This document shows, piece by piece, positions 11,101-61,953 of a DNA stretch of 64,000 nt. A program made the position numbers and the translations under genes. The DNA lies in contig CM114271.1 of assembly GCA_050084515.1 (NCBI GenBank), positions 15,190,001 to 15,254,000 of the forward strand. Reading direction: 5' to 3'. The notes beneath the pieces were generated by a model. It did no database searches. It was not told where the DNA came from and saw only the letters and a program-made list of their open reading frames with translations. The DNA is from Blasia pusilla (lineage: Eukaryota). Every line of letters begins with the position of its first letter. Positions within the stretch are counted from its first letter, which is position 1.

Positions 11101-11206
11101 ACCCCCTGGTAGCTCGCCCTCAACTCAGCGAAGAACTCAACCACGGGGTTGAACTTGGGACGAACCCGACTAGACGTTGCAACTGCTCCAATGCGAGTGA
11201 CCTCTC
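7462..11206 (-). mobile_element. Ty3/gypsy DNMT-family copy 1, internally deleted: gag, protease, [DNMT-RT-RH-INT core deleted], integrase C-terminus, PHD, 3' repeats
   Basis: Gag knuckle remnants (CWSCGGAHH, CDYFQRYGHTRARC), FLLDSGVQP protease, integrase tail AQHRGTLRYA, PHD at 8372-8490; colinear with the copy at 37854-44861. Confidence 0.88.
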
Positions 11207-25062: not shown

Positions 25063-25478
25063 TGTAGAAAACCGCTAAAGAAGCATAATTGGTGGGAAAC
25101 TGCTCTCACACTCACACACCACCATGAAGAACAAAATTTTACAATGAGAGAAATGAGTGGAGGCTGGTCCCCTTCTCAATGAAATAGGGTATGTACAAGC
25201 AACCCTAATCCTAATCTTAACCATAGTCTCGAGTTAGACTAGCTATGATTAACTAACCATAGTTAAGATAATCGCGCTTAAGTGACTAACCAAGATTAAA
25301 CTTCCCTACTTCATGTGAGTACCAAATATAGCAGTTCAAGTGTCTGATGAGCTTGACTATAACTCAGTCTTCAATACTCCCCCTCAAGCTCATATCGATA
25401 TCTCTAACGCCTAAATAATTTCTTAACATCTCAAACTTATCTCTAGAAAATGCCTTTGTTAAGATATCAACAATTACT
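25063..25478 (-). mobile_element. Ty1/copia 3' remnant: RNase H C-terminus, PPT and 311-bp LTR (25063-25373)
   Basis: VDILTKAFSRDKFEMLRNYLG...LRGS; GAGGGGGAGTAT followed by TGAAG...CTACA. Confidence 0.75.
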
Positions 25479-25479
25479 C

Positions 25480-37853: not shown

Positions 37854-38606
37854 TGTCGTGCCCATACACATCGCTACACAACATACATCGCTGTCATCGA
37901 ACACACACACATACGATCCCATGCTAACTCATGGCATCCATAAACAAGGGCGAGAAGTATCAAAATATCTCCAATAAAGTAAGATTCAATCTCTCTCTAC
38001 ACCATCTCACACCATAGCTCTCAAAGGTGTGCACTCTCTCTCATGTCAAACCAAACCCACTCTCCTAATGAGAGGCTTGGGTTACACTCACAACGCAAGG
38101 GACCATAGCTCCGCCGCCTTATGCCAAGAGGTTCAACAAAGAGAGAATGAGCTCTCAAGCTCTCTCTCTTGGAGGTATACCCCCTTCCCTCTCCCAAGCC
38201 CTCTCAACGGTAAACTATGCTCGCAGGTAATCTCCTTGGCTCTTGACGTGTTGTAGCGGGTCAAGGGTCACTTCCCAAAGTGGAAAGTCAACTATCCCAA
38301 ATATGGAAACTTACTCGAAATAGTAAGTTTTTCTATATGGCTCCAAATGAGCCGAAACGAAGGGGAAACTTGCTCTCTCAGGTTTTCCGGGGCCTAAACA
38401 GGTCATCCTCGACCTCCTGGGCCTGTCCTCCACTACTCGTGCAGACGATCCGCTAGATCCCACTGATCTATCCTAACAATCGTGACAACTGTCGTGCGCA
38501 TACATATCGCTACACAACATACATCGCTGTCATCGAACACACACACGATCCCATGCTAACTCATGGCATCCATACACAGAGGCGAGAATTACCAAAATAT
38601 CTCCAA
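37854..38606 (-). repeat. 3' terminal repeat block: B2 37854-37974, A2 37975-38487, B1 38490-38606; PPT-like tract 38607-38617
   Basis: Same B-A-B layout as 7462-8167; junction cgtgaca-ac-tgtcgtg. Confidence 0.88.
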
Positions 38607-38799
38607 TCGCCCCCCTAGCTGCTGGTTATGTTCCTCTAACTCTAGATAGCTATCTATCCCTACCTACCACGACATACATCTTTAGGACGCTAAGAGCAGA
38701 AAAGCCGGGTGCTCATGTGGCCCCATCGTTAGTCGCCTTCATGTCATCCATGTCACAGAAAAATTCAGAATCGAAAACCTACCTAGTATCTCCTTTATG

Positions 38800-38935
38800 T
38801 ACATTTGGGACACATCCATCATCCCCAAGGAACCCTAGTGAGAGGTGGCGTCAGACATGCCATATGCCAAGCTCTCGAACATCCATCACAGACTAGCATC
38901 GTGGCCGCATCACGAGCAGAACCACACAACATATA
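38800..38935 (-). pseudogene. PHD finger at the integrase C-terminus
   Basis: (Y)MLCGSARDAATMLVCDGCSRAWHMACLTPPLTRVPWG*WMCPKC; C4HC3 pattern with the first Cys replaced by Tyr. Confidence 0.9.
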
Positions 38936-40100
38936 ACGCAAGCTTGCAAGACCTACTCCTAAGCTCGGATCTACTGTACCATCAATGTTAGGAAGGTGAC
39001 ATGGCGCACAATTACGCACATGGTCCTTCCATACCATACCATCGCGTCCCTCGAGCAAGAGAACACTGGATGGCAAAACGTCATGCACTCTCAGGATAGT
39101 GCACCCTGCAGTCACATCCAACGTCGTCGGTGCCGTCTGCTGCAAGTAGACATAATCTCCCTTATGAAACCTCCGGATAGTTGGTTGATAACCACCACCC
39201 TGAATAGTTGCAAACCTCAACATATCCCTATGCTGCGCAATCACAAAGTTCTTGAACGCCATGGGCATCACTCTCCGAAATAACTGTGCCCTCTGAGAAC
39301 ATGCTTGCATCCATACATCTAGGTCATCAAGGTCCAGCACCTCACCAACATCTCGACGAATGGCCGCAGGTAAATCTGGCTCTTGACCATAAAGTAGCAA
39401 GTACGGTGAAAAAGATGCTAAGGATGCCTGTCTGCTGAATCTGTGTCCCATCGCCAACCAGGGAAACTGGAGGTCCCAATCTCCTAGGTGACCTCTCTAC
39501 AAGCCATACTTGCGTAAAACCCTCTTCACCGTCTGCACAACTCTCTCCGCTAATCCATCCGCCTCGGGATGATCTTGCGAAGTCGTGCGGTGGTCGATCA
39601 GCGCCTGATCACACAAGGCCTGGAACTTACCACGAAAATTGGTAATGTGGTCTGTCAACACCTCAGCCGGTGCGCCATAATGACTCAACACTCTGTCAAG
39701 GAAGGCATAAGCTACTCCCTCACTCGCTTTGTCAGGCAATGCAACCAACTCGATCCACTTCGAGAAGTGCTCGACCATCACCAACACATAACGACTGTGA
39801 CGCTCCGTCAAAGGCAAAGGTCCTGCAAAATCCAAAATCCATATATACCCTAAGCCCATGATCAGTAATGGATGCAATTGTGGAGTCGGAGCATTGAACG
39901 ATGCTCAAACCCGATCACACACCACGAACCTGGCAATAAAGTGCTGAGCGTCAGTCTACATGCCTCGCCACCAATACTGGAGCAAGATATACATCCGCTT
40001 CACCCCAAAGTGACCCAACTCCTCGTGGGCATGCTGCACTAGTCGTGCTCTCTACAAAGGATGAGGCACTACGCATACTCTACCATCCTCCCAAACCCTC
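38936..40100 (-). pseudogene. Retroviral-type DDE integrase
   Basis: HEELGH zinc-binding region, LDFAGPLP, VLTD...FRGKF, HPEADGLAERVVQTVKR, SPYLLLYG. Confidence 0.93.
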
Positions 40101-40390
40101 AAAACATGTGTCCCCTCCCAACGGAACCGTCTGGCCCAGTGTAGGATCCGATCCCGCTCTCTAGCACCCACGGTGCTCGCAACGCTGCCAGTACAAAGGT
40201 ACTACAAGACTACTCCATCATCATGAATATCTCGGCTACATATTGTCTCCTCACTGGCCTCGAGATCCAAGGACTCTCCACTAGACCTCGCCATCGAAGT
40301 CTCCACACTGTGGCTCTCCATAGAGCCTAAATAGGCTGACACGTGCCATCCTGGCACTGACTCCTTATCACTCTCTCCATGCCTTCGAGC

Positions 40391-41841
40391 TCAAGTCGCA
40401 TCTCGCTGACTCGGGCATGGGTTACAACTCAACCCATCTGCATCGTGGTTGAGCATCCCAAGTCTATGTACCATCTGAAAATCATACTCTTGCAACAACA
40501 GAGCCCATCTTGCAAGCTTCCGTGTAAGCTTGTTGGACTTCACCAACCACTTTAGTGGTTGATGATCATTGATGATGGTAAAGGGGCTGCCGAATAAGTA
40601 ACACCTGAAATGCGCGAGAGCCCACACTGCAACCAAGCACTCAACCTCATACGAGATGTACTTTGCCTCTGCAGCGTTGTTCGAGCGGCTAGCATAAGCC
40701 ACCACGAACTCTCTACCCTCATCATCATGTTGGGTGAGTACCGCTCCAAGCCCCAAAACGCAACAATCTGTGTGCAACTGGAAAGGACGCCCCTTGATTG
40801 GTCTCCTCAAGATAGGTGCGGACGTCTCTCTATCCTTGAGCAACAGAAATGCTCGCTCCTACTCACCCCCTAGTGCCACTCGTGATCCACCTTGGTCAGC
40901 AAGGTTAGTGGCAATTGAACTAAATCCCTTGACGTACCCCCGATAGAAGTTCGCCAATCTCATGAATGCGCGAACACGGCTCACATGTGTAGGACGTGGA
41001 ATGCGTGAGACAGCCTCTACCTTCGTCTGCTGAATACCAAGGACCCCTAGGTATATTGTATGACCCAAGTACTCAATCTGGTCGTACAAGAACTTGCACT
41101 TGCCTGGATGTAGCTTCAGCCCATATAATTGCAATCGTCGAAACACCTCCTCGAGATGTCACTCATGCTCCTCATCTGTGACGCTAAAGACTACGATGTC
41201 ATAAATATAACACCTAGACCGGCCAAGATCCTATCCATGACCCTCTGAAACTCAGCCGGGGTGTTCTTTAACCCAAATGGTAAGAACCGCCACAGGTACA
41301 AACAATCCTTCTCATGAGGATCGATGCCCCAAAATTGTGTCTTCTGCCTATCCTCCAATCAGATAGGCAGCTGATGGTATCCGGCTCGCAAATCCAATGA
41401 ACACAAGACGTTTGGATGACCAATCACATCCAAGATCTCCTGAGGGGTGGGCATGGCATACTTATTGGACTTTGTCTGCCAATTGATAGGTCGGTAATCC
41501 CCACACATCCGCCAATCCGTCCAGTTGCCATGCACATCCTTCTTGGAAGACATGACAGTGGCAGAAGCATACTCCCCATGCAACATCTCCACTAGTCCTG
41601 CTCCGACCAAGTCCTGGCTCCTACTCTGAATTAGAGCCCTCTCCATATCATTGTACCTGTAGGGTCGTCGGAAGATCGACGTATCATTCGACAACTCAAT
41701 GCGAATCCCCGGTCCCTTTTGCATACCAAAATCCTCCATGCTAAATGCAAAGCAGCTCCTATAACTCCTGAGGAATTGATGTATCCGGCGCCGCTCTCCT
41801 CTTGTCAACTTAGGACCCATATTTGGCTCCCAAGTCTCCAT
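40391..41841 (-). pseudogene. Reverse transcriptase and RNase H
   Basis: WRMCGDYR, LDLRAGYHQ, PFGLKN, degenerate YIYD, KCKF...EYLGH, LHTD, AYASRSNN, DHQPL, HDADGLS. Confidence 0.93.
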
Positions 41842-42169
41842 CGTGATTACGGTAGGACTCTCCGGTGCGGGTATCAGTGGTTGCTATGGTTCAACCCCGT
41901 CTCGAACAACAACACTCAACCGCTCTCTTGCAACCAACTGCAAACTCTGATCTCCTCCACGTGCAGTGCCCAGAACCACACTCGATGCTGTGGCTATCAT
42001 CTCTTGGCGTACCTGCAAAACATCCCAAGAAGTCCAAGGGTGTCTCTCCCAATCTCCCCTGGTGTGTAGATCTCCTCGGGTCTCGCCCCCAGCCATTGCC
42101 TCCACCGTCTCGGTAGGCATAGGGCTCACCAACGCGATGGTTGTGATCTGTCACAATCTCATACAGCGT

Positions 42170-43140
42170 TGCTCAGCCACTCCCAAGCTAAGGATCCATG
42201 TCAAGCAGTTCAGGTCCATCGCCTGACCCAAGACATGGCATCGTGATGCCTCTAACACTGACGATACTGCTGTCACTCATGTGGGAAATCCCATCGCTCG
42301 CTCGCTCTCTCTTGTCGGCGTTGGGCTCCACCAACCGCTGAACCTGGTCATCCAAACCAAGCCAGGACCGGCCTCCTTGTATGCATAGGAAGCGGAAAAA
42401 CTCACAAACGTGGGCAAGGCAGCCCGCGGCCTGCCTACCCTGTTGACCATAGTCAACGGTGGTCAATCATCGTGCCTCACTGCTTGTGATCGACGATGTG
42501 GATCCATAATGGAATCAACTAACAAATGGGAGGGGCGCTCCACTCTCGCATACGCCCTCCGTAACACCGCTTGGGGCACCAAGTTGGTCCATCATAGACG
42601 CGGGCGATGGGCTCTAGAACCTACACTCGCCGCATCCAAGAACACTGCTGGGCCAATCTAGGCACGCACTTGATGAGCACTTGTGACCACCCGTTACCTG
42701 GAGTCTCCTAAGATCGGCACATTCTCCAGAATGTAGGCTGGAGAACGAGACTGGTGCTCATGAAATTGCCGTAAGACCCTCAACATCTCCCAAAAAAACC
42801 TAGACCGAGTGTCAGCCAACCCACAGCCTCGTCCAACACTTGATTGGCCCTGACATGGCCAACCGGAAATGACCAAATCAATGGTCCCTACTTGCTCTAA
42901 GTCCTGCGCCCCCAACAACAAAATATCCCTCAGTAGGGAACTCTGGTGTCCCTATACCGCGGACGCAGAAAATAAGTCGGGAAATCGTAAGCGTAACTGC
43001 GCTACATGTCCTAGTGAGACGCGCCTCACAACATCATCACTCTCCACATACAGGTACTGCTGCACTCGCACTCCTGCATGCAAAACAATAGCTAACCCGG
43101 TGCTAATCCCTCCAAAGAGATCTAACACTCGAATATCCTC
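42170..43140 (-). pseudogene. DNMT3-like DNA (cytosine-5) methyltransferase domain within the polyprotein
   Basis: Motif I VLDLFGGISTG; II YVE; IV DLVISGWPCQ; VI ILENV; VIII LDAASVGSRAHRPRL*WTNL; IX RERA.MGFP; X VLGQAMDLNCLTWIL; all in canonical order. Confidence 0.92.
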
Positions 43141-43181
43141 CTCCGGGATATACCACACAATGGGTGTGGTATCCAAGGGTG

Positions 43182-44231
43182 TCATGTAGCACTCCTTGCT
43201 ACCTCGGGTTCCTCAGACCTGTCACCCTCCGATGCAAACGCGTCGCTCCACGCGGTCTTCACATGCTGATCTGCCAATCGTCGAAGCTCCTCAGTCGAGC
43301 CCCACAATGGCACCTCTCCTCCACGGAATGATGCGGCTACCATAACACTCCTCTTCATAGAAATTTCAGGTATGGGAGTATCCTCTGCATGGACATGTCC
43401 CTCAATCAAATCACTAGGCCAAGTGATGGCAATGCTAAATGCTGCTAAGGTCGCCATCTCTCTTGGCCGTCGCTTGATCACTGCACCTGTGAATCGAACG
43501 GGTAATGAGTTAAGGCGCCCATCACCTGACTGCCATTCTGGTTTGTAGGACACTGACTCCTCCCAATAATCCAGGGAAAATCCCATCGGGTATAATACTG
43601 CTCCACCAACCAAGACGTCGTAAGACTCTGCATCAGTCACTATCGCCTTGGCTCGCACCACGGACTCATCTGTAGGATGTCTCGAGCGAATCCTCACCAC
43701 GACCTCTTGTCGGGTGATATACTGTGTGGTACTCGCTCCACCCAAGGATGTATGTATCCGGAATGGACAACGATCCACATTAGCTCTCGTCAAGCCCAAT
43801 CCTCTGAATGAAATTTTCTCCAACATCAGGGGTTGCGCTCCTGAATCCAACAAGACACGATGCGGACTAAAAGCTCTACCTCCGGGACTCACAAATTGGA
43901 AGATCTCTCCTCGGTTATCCAACAACACAACACCAAGAGAAGCCATGGCACGCTCTATCGTGGGTCTAGCGGGCAACTCCGCCATCCTAGGAGCCGCAAC
44001 CTGCCATGAATCTGACGTGGATGGCCCGAGCATCCACTCCAAGGGCAGGTCCATCACCTCCTTTGCCATCACCTCTGAACGTGATGTAAGAACTCCAACT
44101 CCGCGCTCACATAGTGAAGGGGCGAGCCGAAAAGCCTCGGCGGGCGTACCCTCCCACGTCATAACATCGAAAGCAGAAAATAAAGGAGTGCGATACACAA
44201 CGGTGGGCACCCCCAACAACGTGTTCAACAC
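43182..44231 (-). CDS. Retrotransposon aspartic protease region plus linker (349-aa open stretch of a decayed polyprotein)
   Basis: VLLDSGAQPLML catalytic motif and YDVLVG second motif. Confidence 0.85.
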   Translation of the reverse strand: MLNTLLGVPTVVYRTPLFSAFDVMTWEGTPAEAFRLAPSLCERGVGVLTSRSEVMAKEVMDLPLEWMLGPSTSDSWQVAAPRMAELPARPTIERAMASLGVVLLDNRGEIFQFVSPGGRAFSPHRVLLDSGAQPLMLEKISFRGLGLTRANVDRCPFRIHTSLGGASTTQYITRQEVVVRIRSRHPTDESVVRAKAIVTDAESYDVLVGGAVLYPMGFSLDYWEESVSYKPEWQSGDGRLNSLPVRFTGAVIKRRPREMATLAAFSIAITWPSDLIEGHVHAEDTPIPEISMKRSVMVAASFRGGEVPLWGSTEELRRLADQHVKTAWSDAFASEGDRSEEPEVARSAT

Positions 44232-44239
44232 ATGCCCCT

Positions 44240-44825
44240 CCTAAGCATCAACAATAAGAGTCATCGCACTCGCTTCTCCCATCGCCCTCCGTGCCTGCAC
44301 ACCAACAGCATCACCAACTCTCAAGGAACTTTGATGAGGACCCATCGATTGGGTCCTCATCGCTTCAGACAACGTGAAAGACTGAGGAAGCCTAGTATGT
44401 TTTCTGGCTTCCCCTCGCTGTGGATCCAACTTTGCGGCTACTCCACGCGTCACAACTACGGTGGCCTCCATCTAGGCAACCCCGCACATCCAACCAGGAT
44501 CCTCCATATCTTTGGCTGCTCCATATGATGTCGATGCCACAACGGAAATTTGCTCATGTAGATACTGTAACTGAGCAGCCATCCTAGCCTCACGTCCGAC
44601 GTCTCCCTCGGCGCGTCTAGGTGGTGGTACTCTACCTCCTCCACGGGCAGCTCCACCACCCTGTCCGGGCAACTCCAACTTCTCGTCCCCCAACGGGACC
44701 ACATGATGCATGATCCCTAGGCCCACCCGGACCGGCTACTCGCTTTGGTGCCCTCTCTAGCCCTCGGTCCGGATGTAACTCAAGATGTTAACTAAAACAC
44801 CTCGCGCGTGTATGACCATACCTCC
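44240..44825 (-). pseudogene. gag: gag C-terminal remnant
   Basis: YGHTRARCFS knuckle end and G/R-rich tract, colinear with 10089-10560. Confidence 0.8.
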
Positions 44826-45177
44826 CACCGATCCCACCGATCTATCCTAATAGTCGTGACAATGGTGTTGGAGATGGAGCAACAACACGCTCAAGTAGAA
44901 GCCACACAGTTGGTGTTGGAGGTGAAATTTTGGAAACAAGTGGAGGAGCTTGCTAAGTTGTGACGCACCTTTGGAGTTGATAATGATCATCTACCTTCAA
45001 TATTATGTAGAGGAACAATGGTTCACCAATATGTATGTTTGCTATCACTTAGGAGAGGTTGTGCGTCATTTTGTGATGTCTACATAGAAAGAAGGAGATT
45101 TTTTTTAGGATTCAATTAATACCTAGAAGGAGTTGAGGTTAATGATTAGGGCCAAACTTGTGCCTAATAAGTAGGAA

Positions 45178-46580
45178 ATATGCATTGGGAAAAATCATCT
45201 TTCTTAAATTAGAATCAATGAATCTTGTAGATGCTTCAAGAAGTTAGTTTTGTTTGTAATTATTTTGTATACATTAGCTTGGGTCTAGTTGTAATGTTGG
45301 GAATGCATGCATAGTTAATTTTTTTGGTCTGCTTTTTAAAAAAAAACCATATATTTCTATCATGATTCTGACCCCAACCATGTTGAGTTTTGAAGCATTT
45401 CATCCTCAATTAAAATTTTCCATGTTTTATTTTAAATAAAATGAATTCCCTTGTGAGAAACCATCTTTCACTATTATAGCCATGTAAGGATGCATGTATA
45501 ATGCACTAGCATCTCATTGATAATTTGATACATGGTGAATTTTTTAATTTGATCTTTCTCCAAATTAAAAAAACTTTGCATTTAAAAAAAAGAAATCAAT
45601 GAGGATTATATCTAAAAGTTATTCAAACTTTAGAAAAGACAAGAGGCATCTTATCATTTTATTATGAATTTCATTTTTTGATAATAGTATTTATGCCTTA
45701 ATTAAGTAATATTTCTTCTTTCAATTTAATTTGCGCATGAACATGTACATTTAATATAATGACTCATGTTATTCCTTTCCATAAGAGGTACTGTGACAAC
45801 TCATATTTCCTCCTTGAAAAAATACTCTTTTTTCTTAGAAGAGACTTTCCTCATATACTGATCCCCGTTCCTCAAATTTATAATTTAAAATTACTTCCAT
45901 TTTCTCATGCCCTTTTGTTGGATCTCTTTGAATTTCTTTGAAAAAGAGGAGTAATTTGTTTTTACGTATGAAATGCAGGTGTACGTGGAGATTGTGTTTA
46001 TTACATTCAATCTTGTAAAAATCAACTACAAGCATAAAGGAGTTAATAGATGTGCATGTAAAAGTTATTTCCTTGCTTTTTACGTAGCTACTCATGATTT
46101 TGTTATCTATTTAGAAAGATAATGTCAATCATGGATTGTCTTAAAAATGAATAAGGTTTCCTCCCTTAATTTTATATACACATGTTTATGCATGTTCAAG
46201 CTGAGTCTCTATTAGTTTTGTGGAAATTTCTTATCAGATCCCTTCGGCAATTTTTGTTGTTGTTGAAAAATGGTTTGGTATTAAAATGAGTCAACGTTGT
46301 TTCCTTTCTTGATAATTTTCTATGAAAATTACCATCTAACCAATCCAAATCTCATTTATTATTACCTACTTCAATTGTAGGAGATTACATAGGGTAAGAA
46401 TTAATGTATACTTCAATGATTCATGCATGTCGACTCAATTCTTCAAGATGATTCAAGACGAGCAAGAATCTTGCATGCTCAATGATTCCTCATGGTTTGG
46501 ATTATGGCGTAAGGGGTCATGTAGAGTAACTTTAGCTCCAAACATCCCTTTCGGGATTACTAATGTTTTCGATCATGCCC
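45178..46580 (-). repeat. AT-rich dispersed repeat, copy 2 (inverted copy of 16770-18255)
   Basis: Reverse-complement colinearity with copy 1. Confidence 0.88.
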
Positions 46581-48619
46581 ATTGAAACTAGAAAAAATAG
46601 ATAAGATGAGTTGAGTGTGGTACCTAAACCCTCCAACTTGTTCTTGTCTATGTAGAATCTCAAGGCGAATAGCTCAAAAAATTAACTTAAGTGGAAGCCC
46701 GAGGAATCCATGAGGTGAGGCAAGTTAGCCTTAGTTCACCATGGAGGTGAACTAAGGGTACGAGATGGATTGAGAGGTTGGGATTGGGGTTTTGACACCA
46801 AGCCAAGTTCTTGACATCTAATTTTGGAATTGGACCTTGAATTGAGGTTTAGATATTGAGTTATGGTTTGAGACTTGTTTGAGGTCCATTAGGCACTTGA
46901 GCACCATTTCAAGTCCTTAGACTATTAATGAAGTTTATTGCAAGTCATGAATGACTTGCGTGTGTTGGGGAGTGAGGGGTTAGGTCGATATTTGATATTT
47001 TCTAGATCTGTTGAACTTGAGGGGTGACTTGAGACCAAGTCTCGCAAGGCGCAAAGTTCGTTCATCCAAACGGTGGCTAATGAGAGTGTGTTTGGGTGCA
47101 AATCAACAAGGAGAGTGTAACTTGTTGGACCCATAAGCTTATGTGACACACAAGACCTATGTTCAAGGGAGTAGGTGGATGATACTACCACTAGATAATC
47201 TAGATTTGGTGTAGTTTGTTAAGTTCATGCCCTTTCCATTGTATCTTATGCATTTTTATTTATGTCTATTTGTTTCCTACCTTTATTGTCTTTCATCCAA
47301 GTCATTATGATGTCAAATGTTTTTGTAAGTAACTCTCATATCAAAGGTCCATATTGATCTATTTCCATCAGATTCGATGCTTCCACTTGAGGTCTCCATT
47401 AACTCACTTGTTTCTTTCTTGACATTTGTTGAAGCTTGGTCTATTATTTTATTCTAAATTTCAACTTTACTTTCTAAAATACAATGCCTTCTTCACTTTG
47501 AGTTTGGGTGCCTTCACTTCTTGAAAATACTACTCTCTTATCGACGAAAGAATCCGGTAGACTCAAAAAACCTTAATTTCCTTACTCTTTTGTGGCTTGA
47601 TCCCATCCACTTGTCATTGATAAAATTATCTTTCCTTACTCCTAAGTCTTCTAAGTCCTTCAATTCTTAGTACTCAAAGACTTTGAGCTAAGTTACTTGA
47701 CATTACCTTCCTTCCAACTTTCTCAATTCTTTTCATGCCTCAAAATTAGCTTTGACTCAAGCTACCTACAATATACCTTACACTTGGGTTGCCAGCAACA
47801 TGCATGTGACCTAAACTGGGAGTTTATTTTTGTGCATGAAACTCCACTATGAGTTCAAGTATGCTCACATGATGGACTATCTTGAGTTTTCCAACACATC
47901 TAATACTTGAATGTGATTTCATTTGGACAAAAGAGTTATACTTAATCTAACTTATTACTTCTTATCACTATCTGCAAGCTTGAATGCAAAATTTTACCTT
48001 CTTTGATAACACAAATCAAGATCATGTACTCCTACAATATTGAACATGTTAGGTGTTTGTCTCGTGCAAGGAAAAATTCAAATCCATACCCCTACTTTTT
48101 AAACACTACAATAAACTTAAAGTGACATGCATTAGACTATGAAAGTTTTGTAAAGTATGAATACAATCTCATGTTAATATTATAAATAAATAATACTTCA
48201 AAAAAATTTGATGTGAAGAAAAATGAATTTACTCCTTGCACCAATCTTTGAAAATTTTGCACAAAATCAAGACAAGAGGGCAACTTAAGGGAAGGGTAGT
48301 GTTACAAGTGTATGAGTAGATAACTTAGGATAATCATTGCAAGCATACTCTCAATATCCTATGACGGTTGAGGAGAGGCCTCACATGTAAGAAAACATTC
48401 AAAATCGTATCTGGGAGTGCCCATGATGGGGGCGAGTGAGTTGTGCAAGCGCCCATTTGAGTGACAATGATATCCTCTCATAACAATCTAGTGTACGTTT
48501 CAAAAATTTGACACAAATAGAAGCAAGATTTGAATAAAAAGAGGTAATCTATCAAAATTAAAAAGAGGGGGGACTCAAAGAGTTATGAACACCAAGGCCA
48601 TACTTGACAGGGGAAAACA

Positions 48620-53382: not shown

Positions 53383-55051
53383 AACAACAGAAATGTGTTG
53401 AATTTGGAGCAGTGCAAATGGAATGAGGGGACTCGAGAAATGTCCGTGTTTTTCTTATTCTATTCCTTTTATATGACTCCACTCCTTGGAGACTGCATCG
53501 TTCGCCTTAAATGAGCCATGAAGAGCCTGTAAAGATTTTGGAGCAGGAGTTGCTCAGGAATTGATTTCTTGGTCTCGTGGGATTTTTTGCCAGGTGTATC
53601 CTACAAGAGTGTCGCTGTCAGGAAGGGTGTATGCGAAATTCGTTGGGCCTTGAAAGTGACCGCTAGTGATAGTACGTAGGAGCCATTGCTTCTGAGTCTA
53701 TTAGCATGACGGTTTCATAAATTGTTTCAGTGGGGCCATTCTTTTCCTACGGCTTTCGAGTTTAGTTGGGATTTCGTCAGCCATTGGAAGGTGTGGGCAA
53801 GAACCCATGCACGTCTTCACAAGAGAGAAGATATCGGTCTATATGCTGCCATTCAATTAACAATGTACTATATCAAAATTTCTTTGAGGGTCACTCTTCT
53901 CCTATATGAGTCCTTTATGGTTCCGAGTTGTGAAAATCTTTGTTCTGGTTTTGAGTGTAGTAGGGCGTGTCACTCGAAGACCTATAGAAAATCTGTGGGT
54001 CTCAAAAGTCCATAGGATGTCATTTTTTCTACAAAGCTAGGTATGGGATATCTTGCCCGATACTCGCTCACGAGGAATGCCCTGTTGTGTTTTGCATGGG
54101 ACAAAAAGTTTGTGTGCACAAGGGAAAAATTTCTCATGATTGGATATTTGAGAGCTATTGGGCTTCTCTCTCAAATCTCGTAGGAAATAGGGTATGGCTA
54201 TGTGGAGGAAGGCAAGGTGAGTAGGGGTTGGGAGTGGGGCGGAGTTTGGGCAAGGGGTTTAGGGACCTGCTTCTCGCATTATCAAACATATTCTATGATG
54301 CGGGGGATGGGTTAGAGTGGAGGGAAGATTTAATTTATGAGAAATGTTCACACGAATGGAAATCTATGGACAGTTTAAAAACCCACTCATTGAAATGAAA
54401 TACATCATGTTTGTAAAGACTCCATGGATCATATTCAAACCAATCTTATGGTCATTTAGCCATCCTTGAAAGCACGTGTTGTGCATCTATCCCTTTTATT
54501 GTTGGTCATGGAAGCTTGCGTTCAATAGGTTGTGCTCTCTTTATTAATTTGCATTTTAAATGCATCCACATCAGTTACGGAATGGGTCAATTAGTCTTGC
54601 GTCTCTCGAGTCTAGATCTTAGGTCATCTTTCAACCTCAACCAATCTAGATATGGGGCAGATACTAACCTAATCCTTCACTCTCCAATATAGGTAAGTCA
54701 TTCAAGACTTCTACTTCTTTGATAGTCTAAGGATCTAGCGGTCTCAATGGCCCAACGGAGTTACGGCTGAAGGTCCAAGGTTGGTGTCCATAAGTGATTC
54801 ACTTGGATTTGATTTGGTGTGAGAACCCAAATGTTAACCTCTTACTCCCTTGGGTGCCTTGAGTTCATCTTATGGTTCCCAAAATGGGATTAGGTTCTAA
54901 ATGTCCTTGGAGACCCTTCCCGTTGTGTATAGCCTTAGAGAATTCCATCCTCACTAGATTTGGGGAAGTCCTCTTAGATTGCGCAATGTCACTTTCAATC
55001 AAACTATCATTTTCACAATTTGGGTATGGTTTCTATGCTCTTGTTCATGCG

Positions 55052-55223
55052 TTAACTTTAATTTTTAGTTGATAAGAATTATCTTCTCATAAGTTTTTTC
55101 TAATGTCATCTTGTTCACCCCAAAGTAAAGAGGAGGATTAACTTTAATTTTTAGTTGATAAGAATTATCTTCTCATAAGCTTTTTCTAATGTCATCTTGT
55201 TCACCCCAAAGTAAAGAGGAGGA
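55052..55223. repeat. 86-bp tandem duplication spanning the truncation junction of the downstream retroelement
   Basis: ttaactttaattttta...aaagaggagga x2. Confidence 0.9.
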
Positions 55224-58200
55224 GCTAGGGGAGGTTACTTCTTCAGCTACTAATGATATTCTAGGAGGGGTGAGTCGGACTTGGGCAGATCGATGCATCG
55301 TCTTAGGTTCAACCATGTGGTTGAGTTCTTTGCAGAGTTGCAAAGGAACTACCAGGGGGTTCGGACTGAGAAGTTGCAGAGCATCCATGTCTTCCATAGC
55401 CGCACATGTAAGAGTTTGCGTGAGGCATTCATTCGCTTGCGTTGATTGATTAGCATCACTCAAGGTGTGATAGAGGCCCACGCTATCCAAGCATGGTACG
55501 CGATGTTGGAACGAGACATGCGGAAACGGGCGAGGGATGCGACACTTCTTATACGCACCTTACCTACGTTGAGAGATGTTTTTGAGATGGCGGAGTGTAT
55601 TGAGGGAAAAATGCTTGAGGAGAGTCATAAGTCACGCGCGAGAGCAGTCACGATTTTCCTGTACCACCATTGCAACAACGTGGATTTCGGAAGAGGACTG
55701 TGGTACCACGAGGTCAGAGAGAATACTAGGAGTCAGTGCCATAGAGACCAACGCCATAATATGGGGCCGGGAGGAATTTTTTGTTGGGCATGTGGTGAAG
55801 CCCATCACCAACGGGATTGCATTAGTCACAATAGTGGATGCGTACCTCAGCTTGGAGGAGGAGATGGGTTCGTACCAGGATTTTACCACTTTGATCATTG
55901 TCAACGGTTATGGTCATACATGCGCCATGTGTTTTAGCCTTTAACCTGAATTATGCCCGGACCGAAGGCCACAGAGGGCATCAAAGCGAGTTGTCGGTCT
56001 GGGTCGGCCTAGAGGCCATACGCTAGGTGGTCCCGTTGGGATACGAGGAGTTGGATTTGGCGGAAGGGGTGATGTATATGCTCGTGGAGGAGGTAGAGGT
56101 CCACCACCTAGACATGTCGAGAGAGACAAAGGGCGTGAGGCTAGGATGACTGCTCAGATAGAGCAAGTCCAACAACACATTTCCTCTATGGCATTGAGGT
56201 TATCCGATGCCGGATTAGTGGGATTGACGTTGTATGGAGCAGATTGAGGCAGTCGTTGTTGTTACACATGGAGCAGCTGCAAACTTGGATATGCAGAGGG
56301 GAGGCCAAGAAACACACCACACTTCCTCAGCCTTTCATGTTGTCTGCAGCAATGAGGACTCCATCGATGGATCTTCATCAAACTTCTCGGGGAGTTAATG
56401 TTATTGGTGTGCACGCACGGAGGACGATGGGAGAAGCTGGTGCAATGACTCATATTGCGGATGCTTCGGTGGAGTTTGTGTCGGGTACGTTGTTGGGGAT
56501 GGCCATTGTGATGTACCGCGCCCCATGGTGTTTTGCTTTCGATTGTTACAATGTTAGGAAGTAAGCCCGTTGAGGTTTTTTGGCTGGCCGCTACGCCATG
56601 TGAGCGTGGAGTTGGTGTTCCAACATCAAGGTCAGAGATGATTGCAAAGGAGGTGGTGGACTTGCCCTTGGAGACTATGCTTGGCCCGACCATATTGGAT
56701 TCATGGCAGGTTGCGACTGTTAGGATGGCGGAGATGCCTGCTAGACCCGGGATAGAGCGTGCCATGGTTTCTCCTAGTGTTGTGTTGCTAGATAATTGGG
56801 AAGAGGTCTTCCATTTGGTGAGTCTAGAAGGTAGAGTGTTTTTTCCGCAACATGTCTTATTGGATTCAAGAGCGCAACCCCTGATGTTGGGGAAGGCGAC
56901 ATTTAGAGGATTAGGCCTAACTAGGGCACATATGGAGTGTTGCCCATTGAGGATACAATCATCCTTGGGTGGAACAAGTACGACGTAGTTTATCACCCGA
57001 TATGAGGTTGTGGTGAGGAGTTGCCTTGGACATCCATCAAATGAGTTCATAGTGCGAGCCAAGGCGATAGTGACCGATGTCGAGTCATATGATGTATTGG
57101 TTGGAGGAGCAATACTATACCTGATGGGGTTTTCTTGGATAAGTGAGAGGAGTCAACATCCTACAGACTAGGATGGCGGTCAAGCGATGGGCGAATGAAT
57201 TCATTATATGTTCAATTCACAAGTGGAGTAATCGAGTGACCACCACGAGAGATGGTGACATGAGCAGCATTCAGCATCTCCATCACTTGGCCTAGTGATT
57301 TGATTGAGGGGCATGTCCATGCAAGGGACACACCCACGCTTGACACTTCTACAGAGAGGAGTGTTATGGTAGCCACATTATTCTGTGGAGGGGAGGTGCC
57401 GTTGTGGGGCTTGAGTGAGGAGCTTCGACGCTTGGCCGATGAGCACGTGCAGACGGATTGGAGCAAGAAGTTTGCACTAAAGCATGACGGGTTAGAGGAA
57501 CCCGAGGTAGCTAGGAGTGCTACTTTGACACCCTTGGACAACACATCCATTGTATGGCGGATCTTTGAGGAGGGTATTCAGCTATTGGATCTCTTTGGAG
57601 GGATCAACATAGGATTGGCTACTGTTTTGTAGGCAGGAGTACATGTGCAACAATATCTATTTGTGGAGCTCGATGAGGTTGCGTTTAGGGTTTAGGGTTT
57701 CACTTTGACATGTGGCGTAGTTACGCCTTCGTTTTCTCGAATTGGTGTATGCCTCCGTTGTACATGTGTACCAGAGTTCCCTACCGAGGGATATTTCGTT
57801 GATGGGGATGTGGGACTTAGAGTGGATGAGGACCATTGATTTGGTCATTGTTGGTTGGCCATGTTAGGGCCAGTCGAGTGCTGGATGAGGTAAAGGGCTA
57901 CCTGACACTTGATCTAGGTTGTTTTGGGATATGATCAGGATCTTGCGACATTTGCAAGAGCATCAGTCCCGTTCTCCAACTTTCATCTTGGAGAATGTAC
58001 CAATTTTGGGTGACTTGAGGGCACGGATGGTGACAAGTGCACATCAGATGCGTGCTTAAATTAGTCCAGCAATGTTTTTGGAGGCGGCGAGTGTAGGTTC
58101 ACGAGCACATCTCCCGCGTCTATGGCAGACCAACTTGATGCCACACGAGGTGTTACGAAGGGCGTATATGAGAGTGGAGCACCCCTCCCATTTGTTGATG

Positions 58201-59997
58201 GATTCTATTTTGGATCCGAGTCGTTGATTAGAGGTAGTGAGGCATGATGATTGACCGTTGTTGAGAGTGGTCAATAGGATTGGCAGTTCACGCGCAACCT
58301 TTCCCACCTATGTGAGTTTTCCCGCTTCCTTTTGATACAAGGAGGCTGAACCTGGCTTGGTTTGGGATGACCAAGCATAGCGGTTGGTGGAGCCCAACAC
58401 CGATGAGCAAGGGCGGACGATCAAATTTCCCACAAGAGTGAGGGCAGTACCGTCACTATCAAAGGCATCACAACGTCATGTCTTAGGTCAGGTGATGGAC
58501 TTGAATTTCCTGACATGGATCATCAACTAAGGAGTAGCTGAGCAACGTCGAATGAGGTTGCAACAGATCACAACTATTGTATTGGTGAGACCCATGCCTA
58601 CCAAGACGGTTGAGAAAGTAAATAGGGGCAAGACCCAAGGAGATGAACATACCAGGGGTGATTAGGAGAGACACCCTTGGACTTCTTGGGATGTTTTGCA
58701 ATAGGCCGAGAGATGGCAGACACAACATCGAGTGTGGTTCAGGGTACTATAAGTTGAGGAGATCTCTATAAGAGTTTGGAGTTGGATGCAAGAGAGCGAT
58801 CGAGTTTGGTTGTATGAGATGGGGTTGCGCAATAGCAACCACCAATTCCTGCACCTGACAATCCTATAATAATCACGATGAAGACTTGGGTGCGAGATAT
58901 AGATCCTAAGTTGACACGAGGAGAGTAGCGCTACATACATCAGTTCCTTAGGAGTTATAGGAGATGTTTTGTATTTTGCATGCATGATTTAGGTACGCTA
59001 AAGGATCCAAGGATCCGCATTGAGTTGTCTAGCAACACATCAATCTTCTGACGATCCTACATGTAAAATGATATGGAGTGGGCTCTGATTCAGAGTCGGA
59101 GCCAAGACTTGGTTGGAGTAGGACTAGTGGTGATGTCGCATAAAGAGTATGCATCTGCTACCGTCATGCTCACCAAGAAGGATGTGAATGGCAACTAGAG
59201 GGATAGGCGGATGTGTGGAAATTACCAACCGATCAATCCGAGACAAAGTTTGATAGGTATGCCATGCCCACTCGTGAGGAGATATTTAATGATATTGGGC
59301 ATGCAAAGGTCTTTAGTTCCTTAGATCTTTGAGCTGGATACCATCAGCTGCCTATCAGATTGGAGGATGGGTAGCAGACGAAATTTTGGGGCATCGATCC
59401 TCACGGGAAGGATTTTTTTTGTACTAGTGGCGATTCTTACCATTTGGGTTAAAGAACGCTCCAACAGAGTTTCAGAGGGTTATGGGTAGGATCTTGAAAG
59501 GGTTGGATTTTTCTAGGTGTTATATTGATGACATCGTAGGGTTATATAACACCACAGATGAGGAGCATGAGCGACATCTAGAGAGGGTGTTTCGATGATT
59601 GCAGTTACTTGGGCTGAAGTTGTATCTAGGCAAGTGCAAGATCTTCTACGATCAGATTGAGTACCTCGATCATGCAATATACCTAAGTGACCATGCAATA
59701 TATGTGCAACAGACAAAGGTAGAGGCTATTCACACATTTCCACGCTCTACAGATGTGAGTCCAGTTCGTGCATTCATAAGATTGGCGAACCTCTATCGAC
59801 GGTACGTTAAGGGTTTTGGTTCGATTGCGAAGCCACTAACATTGGTGATCAAGGTGGATCACGAGTGGCAGTAGGGGGATGAGCGAGAGAGAGCATTTCA
59901 TCTTCTTAAGGACAGGTTGACGTTGGCATCCATATTGAGGAGACCGATCAGGGGGCGTCCTTTCCAATTGCATACTGATTGGAGTATGTTGGGGTTT
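55213..59997 (+). mobile_element. DNMT-carrying gypsy copy on the plus strand (gag-PR-DNMT-RT-start of RNase H), both ends truncated, more decayed
   Basis: CWACGEAHHQRDC, VLLDSRAQP, LLDLFGG, GWPC, LENVP, RRMCG, PFGLKNAP, YIDD, LHTDWS. Confidence 0.92.
57576..58545 (+). pseudogene. DNMT3-like C5 methyltransferase domain, second copy
   Basis: IQLLDLFGGINIG, DLVIVGWPC, FILENVP, ASVGSRAHLPRLWQTNL, VLGQVMDLNFLTWI. Confidence 0.9.
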
Positions 59998-60597
59998 GAC
60001 ACGTGTATGAGCATGACACGCCGCTAGAGCCCATTAGCATGCACATGCTACAAAGCTAAGGAGACCAGTTGCCTACAATAAAGAATCACTATAGCTAATA
60101 ATCTCAGGAACTAAGGACGATCCATTTCTTGACTGTAGATGATGAGTAAGGAACGAGTCAAACCTCCCCCATAGCCTCATATATCTCTATGATAAGGGAA
60201 ACTAATCCATGTCCATCATGAAATCTACTTTATAGATGGGTTTTCTTGATAGCCTCCACCACTCCTTGAAACATTCTCCCTTTAACCACCACCGGGCTCC
60301 CACGCAAGAAAGTCAAATGTCGATTGTTGGTTTGGGGTTTTTACCATGTTTTCACATATGAGTACACATCATGTTTTCCCACGGCTTTTGAGCCTATCCG
60401 GAATGTTATGAGCCTCTCAAACAGAACTTTCAATGGCAGCACTGTTTTCAAATATCCTGTCATCCAGCTTGGGAACTCGGCAAGAATTTTCTCAGCAACG
60501 GAGGGAATTCTGAATCCCATACGTCTTTCGAATAGCTAGTTATTCCACCGCGTTGGAGCTTAGCCAGAATATTCTAATCTGGGGAGAGAATTTCGAA

Positions 60598-61089: not shown

Positions 61090-61590
61090 TTTCTTGACGC
61101 AAGAATTGTTTCTATTTTCTTGAAGCGATGATCGCATTAGAAGGGCGTCAATTGGTTCCACGCTTCTTGAAGCAACGATCGCATCAGAAAGCCGTGAATT
61201 GGTTGCATGATTCTTGAAGCGATAATCGTATCGGAAAGTCGTCTATTGGTTCCATTCATTTTATTCCATGTTTCTTGGAGCAGTAATCGCATTTGAAAGA
61301 CGTCAATTGGTTCCATGCTTCTTGAAACAATAATCGCATCGGAAAGCCATCTTTTGGTTCCATGTAATTTATTCTATGTTTCTTGACGCAACTATCGCAT
61401 CGGAAAGGCGAAAATTGGTTGAGTGTTTCTTGAAGCGTTGATCGCATTAGAAAGTCGTCGGTTAGTTTCATGTTTCTTGACGCAACAATCGTATTGGAAA
61501 GGCTTCAGTTGTTCAAACTTCCTGAAAAATTCGCTCGGGAAAGGCGTCAATTGGTTCCACATTTCTCGGAGCAACAATCGCTTTGGAAGG
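61090..61590. repeat. Degenerate ~47-bp minisatellite (~10 copies)
   Basis: Consensus approximately ttcttgaagcaataatcgcatcggaaaggcgtcaattggttccatgt. Confidence 0.88.
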
Positions 61591-61953
61591 TCAGCCGAGT
61601 ATGTGATCTCGCCGTTCTAGGGAGTGCTTGCTTGCAGTGCGGTGCGGAGAAAGTATCGGTTCTACTGAAGTAAGTAATCATATTGGAAAGGCGTCAATTG
61701 GGAGACAGGGCATTGACTGCACGCGTCTCTTCACCTGAAGAGAGAAATCCGGCGCAAGCACCAGGGTGTGGAGAATGAGAACCACTGGGCCATTAAGTTC
61801 CTTGTGATGAGGTGGCCCAGATCTCCAGAGAGGTACGGAATGAACGAGGCTGCTCTCCGAATCTCTGGGTGTGGCGCTTGCCCTTTGGAGGGTGTGCAGA
61901 CGACCTTTCTCACTGAGCGACTTGTTGCACATTTCCTCGATCTCTGCTCGACT

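Follow-up and report, generated by a model that had tools for sequence, protein, structure and literature searches.

Does the cytosine-5 DNA methyltransferase (DNMT) sequence lying among retrotransposon domains in Blasia pusilla contig CM114271.1 form a heritable part of the retrotransposon, and if so, to which product does it belong? All copies of the element in the window, that is, the whole 64,000-nucleotide stretch analyzed, are broken, so none is functional. We consider it quite probable that they are the dead copies of one Ty3/Gypsy-type family with a DDE integrase (IN), the order protease (PR)-reverse transcriptase (RT)-RNase H (RH)-IN, and a permanently incorporated Dnmt3-like cytosine-5 DNMT, built and working as described below.

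Copies in the window and anatomy of the element

An earlier note had described two oppositely oriented, decayed copies with the order gag-PR-DNMT-RT. In blastn, 55909-59998 (plus strand, copy B) aligned with 44820-40747 (minus strand, copy A) at 78.0% identity over 4121 columns; ~10 kb separates the two, and their orientations are opposite. Pfam and tblastn, the latter with the Marchantia gag-PR-DNMT protein P0003 and the DNMT-RT-RH-IN proteins P0052 and P0028 as queries, bore out the common order of gag, PR, DNMT, RT and RNase H, and beyond RNase H copy A runs on into integrase and a PHD finger.

Copy A (37854-44862, minus strand) retains part of gag, PR, DNMT, RT, RH, IN, PHD and the 3' repeats B-A-B. 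Its 5' end is a remnant of the A repeat, the first 33 nt (TGTCAC..., 44830-44862; 91% over 33 nt to 38488-38456), which abuts gag across an internal deletion from A-repeat position ~33 through gag residue ~340. The tblastn spans on the minus strand are gag-PR 44615-43239 (the C-terminal part of gag and the aspartic protease, with LLDSGA at 43836-43853), DNMT 43185-42019, RT-RH 41883-40385 (domains at 40385-41877, with a frameshift near 41209-41218), IN 40234-39500 (zinc-binding region and DDE core, Pfam rve) and PHD 38929-38834 (PF00628, E 2.1e-7) at the integrase C-terminus. A single-frame match of 663 residues (P0052 33-680) bridges DNMT to RT. The 3' end (37854-38616) comprises a PPT-like AGGGGGG (38610-38616), B1 (38490-38607), A2 (37975-38487) and B2 (37854-37975).

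Copy B (55212 to ~60024, plus strand) is a fragment cut near gag residue 98 and again within RNase H. Its spans are gag 55308-56193, PR 56569-57132 (LLDSRA 56857-56874), linker plus DNMT 57120-58695 (DNMT 57530-58695) and RT with the start of RNase H 58881-60024 (YIDD 59521-59532). The open frame said to read from the post-protease linker into motif I is present; it extends from stop to stop over 57264-57632 and reads ...EPEVARSATLTPLDNTSIVWRIFEEGIQLLDLFGG, with DLFGG at 57588-57602. In copy A, where a frameshift had been placed at 43182-43185, a one-base gap relative to B, between ARSAT and TPLD at ~43186-43190 (minus strand), explains the frame change between the linker and DNMT motif I. The DNMT has seven in-frame stops in A and 12 in B, with frameshifts besides, and both copies are dead.

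Copy C (7462-11200, minus strand), of the A/B family, has gag-PR fused to the integrase C-terminus and the 3' B-A-B repeats; a deletion (junction ~8848-8939) has removed its DNMT, RT, RH and IN core. An inverted 5' part belonging with it (11207-13965, plus strand) holds an A repeat (11207-11720), a leader of ~1.9 kb and the gag N-terminus (13594-13965). Copy D (25472-28400, minus strand), from a relative with 71% identity, keeps RT-RH-IN; its 5' truncation falls shortly before its own TAG CAG CCA (TAG 28297-28299, minus strand), and its DNMT is gone. The family has a 5' repeat A, a long leader, one long frame encoding Gag (with a zinc knuckle), aspartic protease and DNMT, and a conserved UAG in the context UAG-CAR-YYA. 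Past the stop, the same frame encodes RT, RNase H and an integrase that ends in a PHD finger; a purine tract comes next, and the B-A-B repeats close the element.

The methyltransferase module and its selection

Against P0003, the DNMT of copy A aligns through 389 residues without a change of frame (60% identity, all gaps at most 8 residues), and that of copy B through 334 residues (51%) past the frameshift at 57692-57694. The module is thus intronless, in agreement with the earlier note. PF00145 matched a piece of copy A (42694-42951, E 4.6e-10). The DNMT pieces of copy B are too broken for an ORF-level Pfam match; its DLFGG, WPC*G (57856-57870) and ILENVP (57985-58002) are nonetheless in place. 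A profile from 13 relatives reached 45 PDB sequences at E<=0.01, of which the top 29 were DNMT3A/3C/3B (best 5.5e-10), followed by plant DRM (5e-5), HaeIII/HhaI (~1e-3) and DNMT2 (~8e-3). By this ranking the element's DNMT is Dnmt3-like.

We compared A with B for dN/dS by the Nei-Gojobori method and for differences by codon position by chi2. DNMT differences were distributed 74/59/119 over 385 codons (p 3.6e-7) and RT differences 70/49/89 over 359 codons (p 7.8e-4), both with a third-position excess. dN/dS was 0.34 for DNMT (368 codons), close to 0.35 and 0.39 for RT and 0.42 for PR; the DNMT-RT linker gave 0.70 and no codon-position bias (12/12/12 of 60). The DNMT has therefore diverged at the rate of PR and RT with a coding signature. 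Its 0.34, taken over all the divergence between A and B, exceeds the <0.2 reported for Klebsormidium DNMT-element copies (PMC5890265), as expected if post-insertion decay supplies part of that divergence.

The copies also end differently: A has a 5' repeat remnant, a full 3' end and an internal deletion, and B is cut in gag and RNase H. Across the coding frames examined, private stops number 10 in A and 26 in B. Shared flanks would have pointed to a segmental duplication; over 2 kb or more beyond each end, flank similarity was absent except for one 145-nt, 70%-identical patch (46914-47054 versus 54597-54733). The differing truncations, unrelated flanks and private stops indicate independent insertions. 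We conclude that A and B are separate insertions from lineages still selected for a working DNMT, each decaying alone afterwards. Since the module occupies the same place in two independently truncated copies, and gag-PR-DNMT(-RT-RH-IN) relatives occur in Marchantia, Calypogeia, Sphagnum and elsewhere, the view that it retrotransposed with the element as a heritable in-frame module, and was not a one-off insertion, is sustained.

Two other readings bear on this conclusion. If A and B were the arms of an inverted segmental duplication of one old insertion, the second copy would say nothing about DNMT retrotransposition; the mere 10 kb between oppositely oriented copies and the patch, which lies upstream of both in matching relative orientation, would fit. 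However, the patch is less similar than the coding region (70% versus 78%) and lies at unequal distances from A and B, flank similarity is otherwise lacking over the 2 kb or more compared on each side, the copies are truncated differently, a dead duplicate should diverge neutrally and not with the third-position excess and low dN/dS of DNMT, RT and PR, and copies C and D together with hundreds of relatives elsewhere show that the family transposes. This reading is close to refuted, and we regard it as extremely improbable. It is also unlikely, if somewhat less so, that the DNMT was kept for binding DNA or chromatin without catalysis, that is, as a pseudo-enzyme. Pfam scores for the domain are indeed modest (E 1e-5 to 1e-11), but motifs I (DLFGG), IV (PCQ, in GWPCQG with the catalytic Cys) and VI (ENV, in ILENVP) and the RxR block show little or no variation among relatives, and DLFGG (43108-43122), WPCQG (42847-42861) and ILENVP (42715-42732) are still legible on the minus strand in copy A. 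Moreover, the Symbiodinium retrotransposon DNMTs that were tested are reported to methylate CG de novo (PMC5890265).

A stop codon ahead of RT and two architectures

The earlier note had made the DNMT part of Pol, which does not hold. In all three window copies that cover the site (A, B and D), an in-frame TAG divides DNMT from RT, followed by CAA CCA in A (41878-41886, TAG 41884-41886, minus strand) and B (58833-58841, TAG 58833-58835, plus strand), at one alignment column, and by CAG CCA in D. A stop occupies the equivalent site in 51 of 51 metagenome relatives examined. Among 56 RT-start matches, 53 were usable (these 51 loci plus A and B), and all have TAG or, in 18 cases, TAA, then CAA CCN, 15 (50 of 53) or 16 (3 of 53) codons ahead of the RT start; the surrounding 79 codons hold a mean of 0.72 other stops. 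Since most of the 51 loci are closely related, only some five lineages count as independent, namely the window family, copy D, the main family of the metagenomes, locus L031 and the Marchantia/Calypogeia protein ends. Twelve bryophyte-type proteins, those of Marchantia and Calypogeia among them, terminate 27-38 residues past the HPWxxWD block. The stop is not universal, since P0089 (2188 aa) carries PR-DNMT-RT-RH-IN as one unbroken protein. None of 80 metagenome loci is fully intact, the least broken being L031 (438 + 766 open codons around the stop) and L006 (440 + 493). Given the conserved stop, the DNMT is the C-terminal module of the upstream frame and belongs to a Gag-PR-DNMT product; RT-RH-IN, downstream, probably needs readthrough. 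With the DNMT fused to Gag, its packaging in particles, also put forward in the earlier note, is plausible.

The family is broad: a cutoff of E<=1e-3 gave 5245 representatives, of which 1412 reached <=1e-10 and 392 reached <=1e-30. Among named relatives, proteins of Marchantia, Calypogeia and Sphagnum come closest, and gag-PR-DNMT(-RT-RH-IN) relatives occur there and in many other sources. A second large group has the order RT-RNaseH-DNMT-IN-PHD. Of 221 collected proteins with the DNMT, 72 place it downstream of PR, upstream of RT or both; in 87, RT/RH precedes it, IN follows it immediately, or both; the other 62 have only the DNMT. The repeat layout A-coding-B-A-B is found in the window and in four long loci (L042, L075, L080, L056).

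The stop could instead be a plain terminator, with RT-RH-IN-PHD arising, for example, through termination-reinitiation, initiation at an internal site or translation of an RNA that is spliced or subgenomic. CAA CCC, found in 48 of the 53 usable matches, misses the final A of CAR-YYA; many relatives have a Met 3 or 15 codons past the stop (QPM..., ITM ETWEP); no RNA structure stands out 3' of it (z -1.9 and -0.8); and 59 collected proteins end after the DNMT. The Met, however, is not conserved between stop and RT: L031 has none, and its place differs between the window copies and the main family. RT is always in the DNMT frame, with 14-15 codons past the stop open, and the six bases after the stop are near-invariant across lineages (CAACCA, CAACCA, CAGCCA, CAACCA, CAACCC), whereas the six before it vary. 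LTR elements as a rule bring Pol into particles only when it is fused to Gag. We therefore favor readthrough and hold plain termination to be rather unlikely. More open, although still doubtful, is independent capture of Dnmt3 by the bryophyte-type PR-DNMT-stop-RT elements and the RT-RH-DNMT-IN-PHD elements, as opposed to a shared DNMT-bearing ancestor with a moved module. The DNMT position differs between the groups, and one branch (support 0.995) of a tree of 172 DNMT domains parts all 49 PR-DNMT-type from all 84 RT-RH-DNMT-type domains, although this tree, unrooted and without host DNMT3, cannot tell capture histories apart. Repeated Dnmt3 capture by retrotransposons is on record (PMC5890265). 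On the other side, both groups have the PHD finger behind integrase, similarity between copy A and P0053 is comparable along the element (RT 36-42%, IN 45%, DNMT 36%), and in searches the DNMTs of the two groups match each other far better than they match any host DNMT3.

Proposed working and known systems

Under the readthrough reading, each translation of genomic RNA would yield Gag-PR-DNMT, and a minority of ribosomes would pass the UAG to make Gag-PR-DNMT-RT-RH-IN-PHD. Gag would carry both products into the particle, where the protease may free the DNMT. Its target might be the element's own new DNA copy or the landing site, a role already proposed for the elements of Klebsormidium and Symbiodinium, and the PHD finger may steer integration by reading histone tails.

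Chromoviruses are Ty3/Gypsy elements with a chromodomain behind the integrase. The window family likewise carries a chromatin reader appended to the C-terminus of its integrase, but the reader is a PHD finger, not a chromodomain. Chromoviruses are mentioned in a preprint (10.64898/2026.05.21.726589). As in tobamoviruses, with the type I leaky-stop consensus UAG-CAR-YYA, and in the gammaretroviral gag-UAG-pol (PMC3542737), an in-frame UAG has the abundant product upstream and the polymerase downstream. The window copies match the type I consensus exactly; most relatives, in contrast, have CAA CCC, no pseudoknot-like structure was found past the stop, and the stop comes after PR and DNMT, not after Gag as in gammaretroviruses.

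SymbioDIRS-Dnmt3 of Symbiodinium, as described in PMC5890265, shares a Dnmt3-type DNMT in a retrotransposon polyprotein, A-coding-B-A-B repeats and two domain orders coexisting within Pol; it has a tyrosine recombinase, in contrast to the DDE integrase of the window family, whose termini are TG...CA and which shows candidate 4-bp target duplications. A DNMT inside a retrotransposon polyprotein is rare but of a known kind, already reported from an alga as Gypsy-DNMT3 (KnitGypsy-Dnmt3) of Klebsormidium nitens (de Mendoza et al. 2018, PMC5890265). According to that report, it too has a Ty3/Gypsy-type domain set, an intronless Dnmt3-related DNMT that is not rearranged, lies within the coding region and is under purifying selection across copies, a streptophyte host, and the DIRS-like A-coding-B-A-B layout (Fig. 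4c and 1e legends). Our literature search found no paper describing bryophyte DNMT-carrying elements. The window family is bryophyte-type, its nearest named kin being in Marchantia, Calypogeia and Sphagnum, while KnitGypsy-Dnmt3 is charophyte. By the authors' description, DNMT, RT and RNase H share one ORF in the Klebsormidium Gypsy elements (PMC5890265 peer-review file), whereas here the DNMT follows the protease and a stop intervenes. What is new is the DNMT between protease and RT, with a DNMT tree that splits cleanly by position, and the leaky-type stop context that parts the DNMT from an in-frame RT.

Two decayed copies with a Dnmt3-related methyltransferase

The window is of eukaryotic origin and contains GC-rich blocks set in AT-rich DNA. 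Self-comparison revealed four related blocks, designated copies A to D. Copy A (37854-44862, minus strand) and copy B (55212-~60024, plus strand) are decayed retrotransposons that carry a C5-DNA methyltransferase (DNMT) and share 78.0% identity over 4121 alignment columns (55909-59998 versus 44820-40747). In the open pieces of copy A, Pfam detected DNA_methylase (E = 4.6e-10), RVT_1, RT_RNaseH (4.6e-34), rve, and a PHD finger (2.1e-7), from 5' to 3' on the minus strand. The order of protease (PR), reverse transcriptase (RT), RNase H (RH), and integrase (IN), with a DDE integrase, is that of a Ty3/Gypsy (Metaviridae-type) Pol. The LLDSGA motif of the protease was found at 43836-43853. In copy B, RVT_1 and RNase H alone passed Pfam at the ORF level; the ORF pieces gave no DNMT match, being too short and broken, and tblastn with related proteins was used instead. 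The tblastn domain maps of copies A, B, and D agreed with the Pfam order of copy A.

Both copies were mapped by tblastn with P0003, a related gag-PR-DNMT protein. In copy A, gag-PR (44615-43239) and the DNMT (43185-42019) lie in different frames, and the DNMT shows 60% identity to P0003 over 389 residues with seven in-frame stops. In copy B, a single frame (57120-57692) begins at the end of the protease, crosses the linker, and enters motif I, and the remaining DNMT (57694-58695) follows after a frameshift with 51% identity over 334 residues and 12 stops. A 663-residue match of copy A to another relative, P0052, passes from DNMT into RT in one frame (43134-41209). An earlier note, made from the sequence alone, had described an ORF of copy B that enters motif I from the linker, a frameshift at this point in copy A, and a DNMT without visible introns. 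ORF search, tblastn, and alignment of the copies bore out all of its observations: the ORF is present at 57264-57632, the frame change in copy A is one base missing relative to copy B at ~43186-43190, and the DNMT is covered by single-frame matches with no gap larger than 8 residues.

To classify the DNMT, a profile of 13 relatives was searched against PDB and matched 45 sequences at E ≤ 0.01. The best 29 of the 45 were DNMT3A, DNMT3C, and DNMT3B (best E = 5.5e-10), followed by plant DRM (5e-5), HaeIII/HhaI (~1e-3), and DNMT2 (~8e-3). The signatures of C5-DNMTs are present, namely FxGxG in motif I, PCQ with the catalytic Cys in motif IV, and ENV in motif VI, and motifs I, IV, VI, and RxR follow one another collinearly in the usual arrangement, without the DRM-like rearrangement. 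Copy A reads DLFGG, WPCQG, and ILENVP, and copy B reads DLFGG, WPC*G (the asterisk being a stop), and ILENVP; both copies are broken by stops. In the relatives, DLFGG, GWPCQG, ILENVP, and the RxR block are invariant or near-invariant. Judged from the profile matches and these kept motifs, the domain is a predicted methyltransferase related to Dnmt3. Marchantia polymorpha, Calypogeia fissa, Sphagnum, and other sources supplied the proteins closest to the DNMT piece. These proteins extend to 1000-1300 residues, and their source annotations call them 'CCHC-type domain' or 'DNA (cytosine-5-)-methyltransferase'. The nearest cluster in a protein atlas, which serves as a lead only, is eukaryotic with Streptophyta as the commonest phylum. 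Megablast of the DNMT against plasmid sequences gave no match, a result that carries no weight.

The ends of the two copies differ. In copy A, the first 33 nt of the 5' repeat are joined to gag residue ~340 and the 3' end is entire, whereas copy B is truncated on one side near gag residue 98 and on the other within RNase H. The 3' ends of copies A and C consist of the terminal repeats B (~122-128 nt), A (~420-513 nt), and B, which are distinct from the copies of the same letters. The sole 5' end in the window (11207-11720) is an A repeat alone. Four long metagenome loci (L042, L075, L080, L056) likewise have A at the 5' end and B-A-B at the 3' end, with no B after the 5' A in any of the four. 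Thus, the layout in the window and these loci is A-coding-B-A-B, and two identical direct LTRs are absent. The termini TGTC...GACA and the purine tract AGGGGGG directly 5' of the first B are common to the window and the four loci, and the internal B/A junction of the loci reads GACA-NN-TGTC, as if both termini were abutted. Exact 4-bp flanking duplications were found in two of the four loci (CATA in L080, AAGG in L056); copy A is flanked by CCAT and CATC, with no clear target duplication. By eye, no recognisable primer-binding site follows the 5' A repeat in the window or the long loci. This repeat layout coexists with the DDE integrase in one element.

Copy C (7462-11200, minus strand) matches both ends of copy A without the middle: gag-PR is fused to the integrase C-terminus, with DNMT, RT, RH, and the IN core deleted from ~7 codons before the DNMT. 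Its 5' 2.8 kb is inverted alongside (11207-13965, plus strand) and comprises the A repeat, a leader of ~1.9 kb, and the gag N-terminus, the break falling at gag residue ~120-131. Copy D (25472-~28400, minus strand) is a 71%-identical relative spanning RT to integrase, with one long frame match of 952 residues to P0052 over RT-RH-IN; a sensitive search found no DNMT remnant upstream of it. The window also contains a host-like AMP-binding enzyme gene (985-3548, minus strand), split between the neighbouring open stretches 2205-3548 and 1799-2140 (PF00501, E = 1.5e-48 and 3.2e-17). A 527-nt unit repeated three times in tandem with 99% identity (36048-37624) abuts the 3' end of copy A, and one member of an inverted pair of AT-rich dispersed repeats (45179-46580 and 16770-18254, 83-86% identical) adjoins its 5' end. 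Diverged tandem-like repeats of ~100 nt with ~70% identity occupy 61100-61600.

Selection and decay of copies A and B

We aligned copies A and B globally, took codon positions from the frames of copy A, and calculated dN/dS according to Nei-Gojobori. The ratio was 0.34 for the DNMT (368 codons), a value between two dead copies that is inflated by the post-insertion decay included in it. It was 0.35 for the first part of RT (194 codons), 0.39 for RT/RNase H (154 codons), 0.42 for the protease (210 codons), 0.47 for the whole of gag-PR (440 codons), and 0.70 for the DNMT-RT linker (57 codons). Differences by codon position were 74/59/119 in 385 codons of the DNMT, a third-position excess (chi-square p = 3.6e-7), 70/49/89 in 359 codons of RT (p = 7.8e-4), and 12/12/12 in 60 codons of the linker. 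Nucleotide identity was alike for the DNMT (~78%), protease (79%), and RT (81%). Together, these values indicate that part of the divergence between copies A and B arose while the DNMT was still under selection as coding sequence, at least as strongly as RT.

After this selected phase, the two copies decayed separately. Across the coding frames examined, copy A has 10 private stops and copy B has 26; a simple C>T or G>A change accounts for 16 of the 26 in copy B. Transitions exceed transversions by 1.52:1, and the observed/expected ratio of CpG is 0.67-0.73. Outside the elements, the sole similarity between copies A and B is a patch of 145 nt at 70% identity (46914-47054 versus 54597-54733), which falls short of the coding similarity and lies at unequal distances from the two copies. 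The patch is upstream of both copies in the same relative orientation, and it has no match in the sole 5' leader present in the window.

The earlier note had taken the two copies for independent insertions of an element in which the DNMT is a replicated part of the polyprotein. Segmental duplication would also place two similar blocks near each other, and the 145-nt patch is the one stretch of common flank that could speak for it. It is nevertheless very unlikely, since the ends of the copies differ and the flanks share nearly nothing; the signature of selection also stands against it. A one-off insertion of a host gene is rejected, since both copies, truncated and decayed separately, have the DNMT at the same position. 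The reading of the DNMT as a part of the element that was replicated with it thus stands. The copies in the window are dead, and the interest lies in the family that they represent.

The stop codon between DNMT and RT

The proteins of Marchantia, Calypogeia, and related sources end 27-38 residues past HPWxxWD, the block that closes the DNMT. In copy A, there is a TAG at 41884-41886, after which the same frame continues into RT, and copy B has a TAG (58833-58835) in the identical alignment column. Both are directly followed by CAA CCA. Copy D reads TAG CAG CCA and has kept this TAG (28297-28299) despite being cut ~35 codons upstream.

We surveyed this stop in 80 metagenome loci encoding relatives, using the start of RT (ETWEP) as the anchor so that the result did not depend on the upstream frame. 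There were 56 matches to the RT start; three that did not begin from its first residues were dropped, leaving 53 sequences (51 loci and copies A and B). Because the loci are mostly close kin, these represent about five independent lineages. A stop precedes RT in 53 of 53 (TAG in 35, TAA in 18), and CAA CCN follows it in every case (CAACCC in 48, CAACCA in four, CAACCT in one). The spacing from stop to anchor is 15 codons in 50 sequences and 16 in three. On average, a sequence has 0.72 further stops within the 79 codons around this site. The hexamer ahead of the stop varies by lineage and the hexamer behind it is nearly constant. No conserved methionine was found between the stop and RT in the sequences compared.

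In plant viruses, leaky stops of type I have the signal UAG-CAR-YYA (PMC3542737). Copies A, B, and D match it fully with RT in frame downstream. The full signal occurs in four of the 53 sequences, copies A and B included (copy D is outside this set), and most relatives match five of the six bases. No convincing RNA structure was predicted for the 120 nt starting at the stop, with z scores of -1.9 for copy A and -0.8 for copy B. These sequence patterns suggest that the stop is probably a site of programmed readthrough. The main product would then be Gag-PR-DNMT, and a minor readthrough product would be Gag-PR-DNMT-RT-RH-IN-PHD. The earlier note had the DNMT packaged as part of Pol. Its interpretation holds in substance, but this point has to be amended: the conserved TAG/TAA puts the DNMT with Gag-PR, although the frame is common and the readthrough product would hold both. 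The public bryophyte gene models P0003, P0023, P0028, and P0045 either terminate at this stop or are spliced past it to RT, and they are annotated as ordinary host proteins, for example, DNA (cytosine-5-)-methyltransferase or CCHC-type domain.

Two architectures in the family and known elements

A profile search over 1.84 billion representatives detected 5245 related proteins with E ≤ 1e-3; 1412 remained at a threshold of 1e-10 and 392 at 1e-30. Six domains were located in each of 225 collected proteins, and the DNMT was present in 221. In 72 of the 221, the DNMT comes after the protease and/or before RT, as in the window copies; 59 of these are PR-DNMT proteins with the DNMT as their last domain, and another, P0089, is a single protein of 2188 residues with PR-DNMT-RT-RH-IN. 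In another 87, RT and/or RNase H precede the DNMT and/or integrase (with PHD) directly follows it, including 38 with the full RT-RH-DNMT-IN-PHD order. The remaining 62 have the DNMT alone. Pfam confirmed both domain orders on ten examples. An unrooted maximum-likelihood tree was built from 172 DNMT domains with 250 residues or more, without host DNMT3; in it, one branch with support 0.995 separated all 49 sequences of the first type from all 84 of the second.

Both architectures have a PHD finger following the integrase, and copy A resembles a protein of the second type to a comparable degree in RT (36-42%), IN (45%), and DNMT (36%). On these grounds, we lean towards one DNMT-bearing ancestor, in which the module would have been relocated. 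The PHD finger is located at 38834-38929 (minus strand) in copy A and was also found after the integrase in P0053, P0058, P0066, and P0069. In chromoviruses, a chromodomain occupies this place after the integrase.

To our knowledge, only a few lineages have retrotransposons encoding an enzyme that hosts use for silencing them. Our results may be read jointly, tentatively and at slightly less than an even chance, as a widespread and undescribed bryophyte branch of DNMT3-carrying Gypsy elements. In this branch, the DNMT would end the Gag-protease frame before a conserved leaky UAG and be made at Gag-like abundance, RT and integrase would be made by readthrough only, and the DNMT module would have moved within Pol. 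If so, the DNMT and the PHD finger of the integrase would form a self-contained chromatin toolkit, and the relation to the RT-RH-DNMT-IN-PHD branch would show that the module changed its place in the course of streptophyte evolution. The DNMT module can occupy two different positions in the polyprotein, and the stop suggests an expression logic in which the DNMT is made with Gag, and the polymerase and integrase via readthrough. Several bryophyte gene models named 'DNA (cytosine-5)-methyltransferase' or 'CCHC-type domain' are explained as these elements; otherwise, they would count as host DNMT genes. Marchantia is transformable and has methylome resources, so that it can be tested directly whether the DNMT methylates element cDNA, mimics gene-body methylation, or alters the host methylome.

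The kind of element is already known, since the Gypsy element KnitGypsy-Dnmt3 of Klebsormidium nitens was reported to encode intronless Dnmt3-related DNMTs within its Pol ORF (de Mendoza et al., 2018, PMC5890265), and a 2026 preprint lists 'streptophytes (Gypsy-DNMT3)' among known cases (10.64898/2026.05.21.726589). In the literature searched, to which subscription journals did not belong, we found no description of DNMT-encoding retrotransposons in Marchantia or other bryophytes. The repeats of KnitGypsy-Dnmt3, A-coding region-B-A-B, were described as those 'of a DIRS retrotransposon' (PMC5890265), and by the published figure legends the window family has the same layout. A DIRS element is nevertheless rejected for the window family: copy A and its relatives carry rve and Integrase_H2C2, that is, a DDE integrase, and Pfam found no phage-integrase (tyrosine recombinase) domain in them.

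Set beside KnitGypsy-Dnmt3 by its published description, the window family shares the intronless Dnmt3-related DNMT with motifs in the ordinary order. Selection on the DNMT has the same direction, with a decay-inflated dN/dS of 0.34 between copies A and B and a Ka/Ks below 0.2 among K. nitens copies (PMC5890265). The two differ in the reading frame. According to the authors' statement in the peer-review file of PMC5890265, the DNMT of their Gypsy elements shares its ORF with RT and RNase H, whereas in the window family a TAG or TAA lies between them in copies A, B, and D and in 51 of 51 usable loci. The range of streptophyte Gypsy-DNMT3 is thereby widened from a charophyte alga to bryophyte-type genomes, the model liverwort Marchantia included. 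What is new is a DNMT placed between protease and RT, with a stop before RT, in a new host group of a known kind of element.
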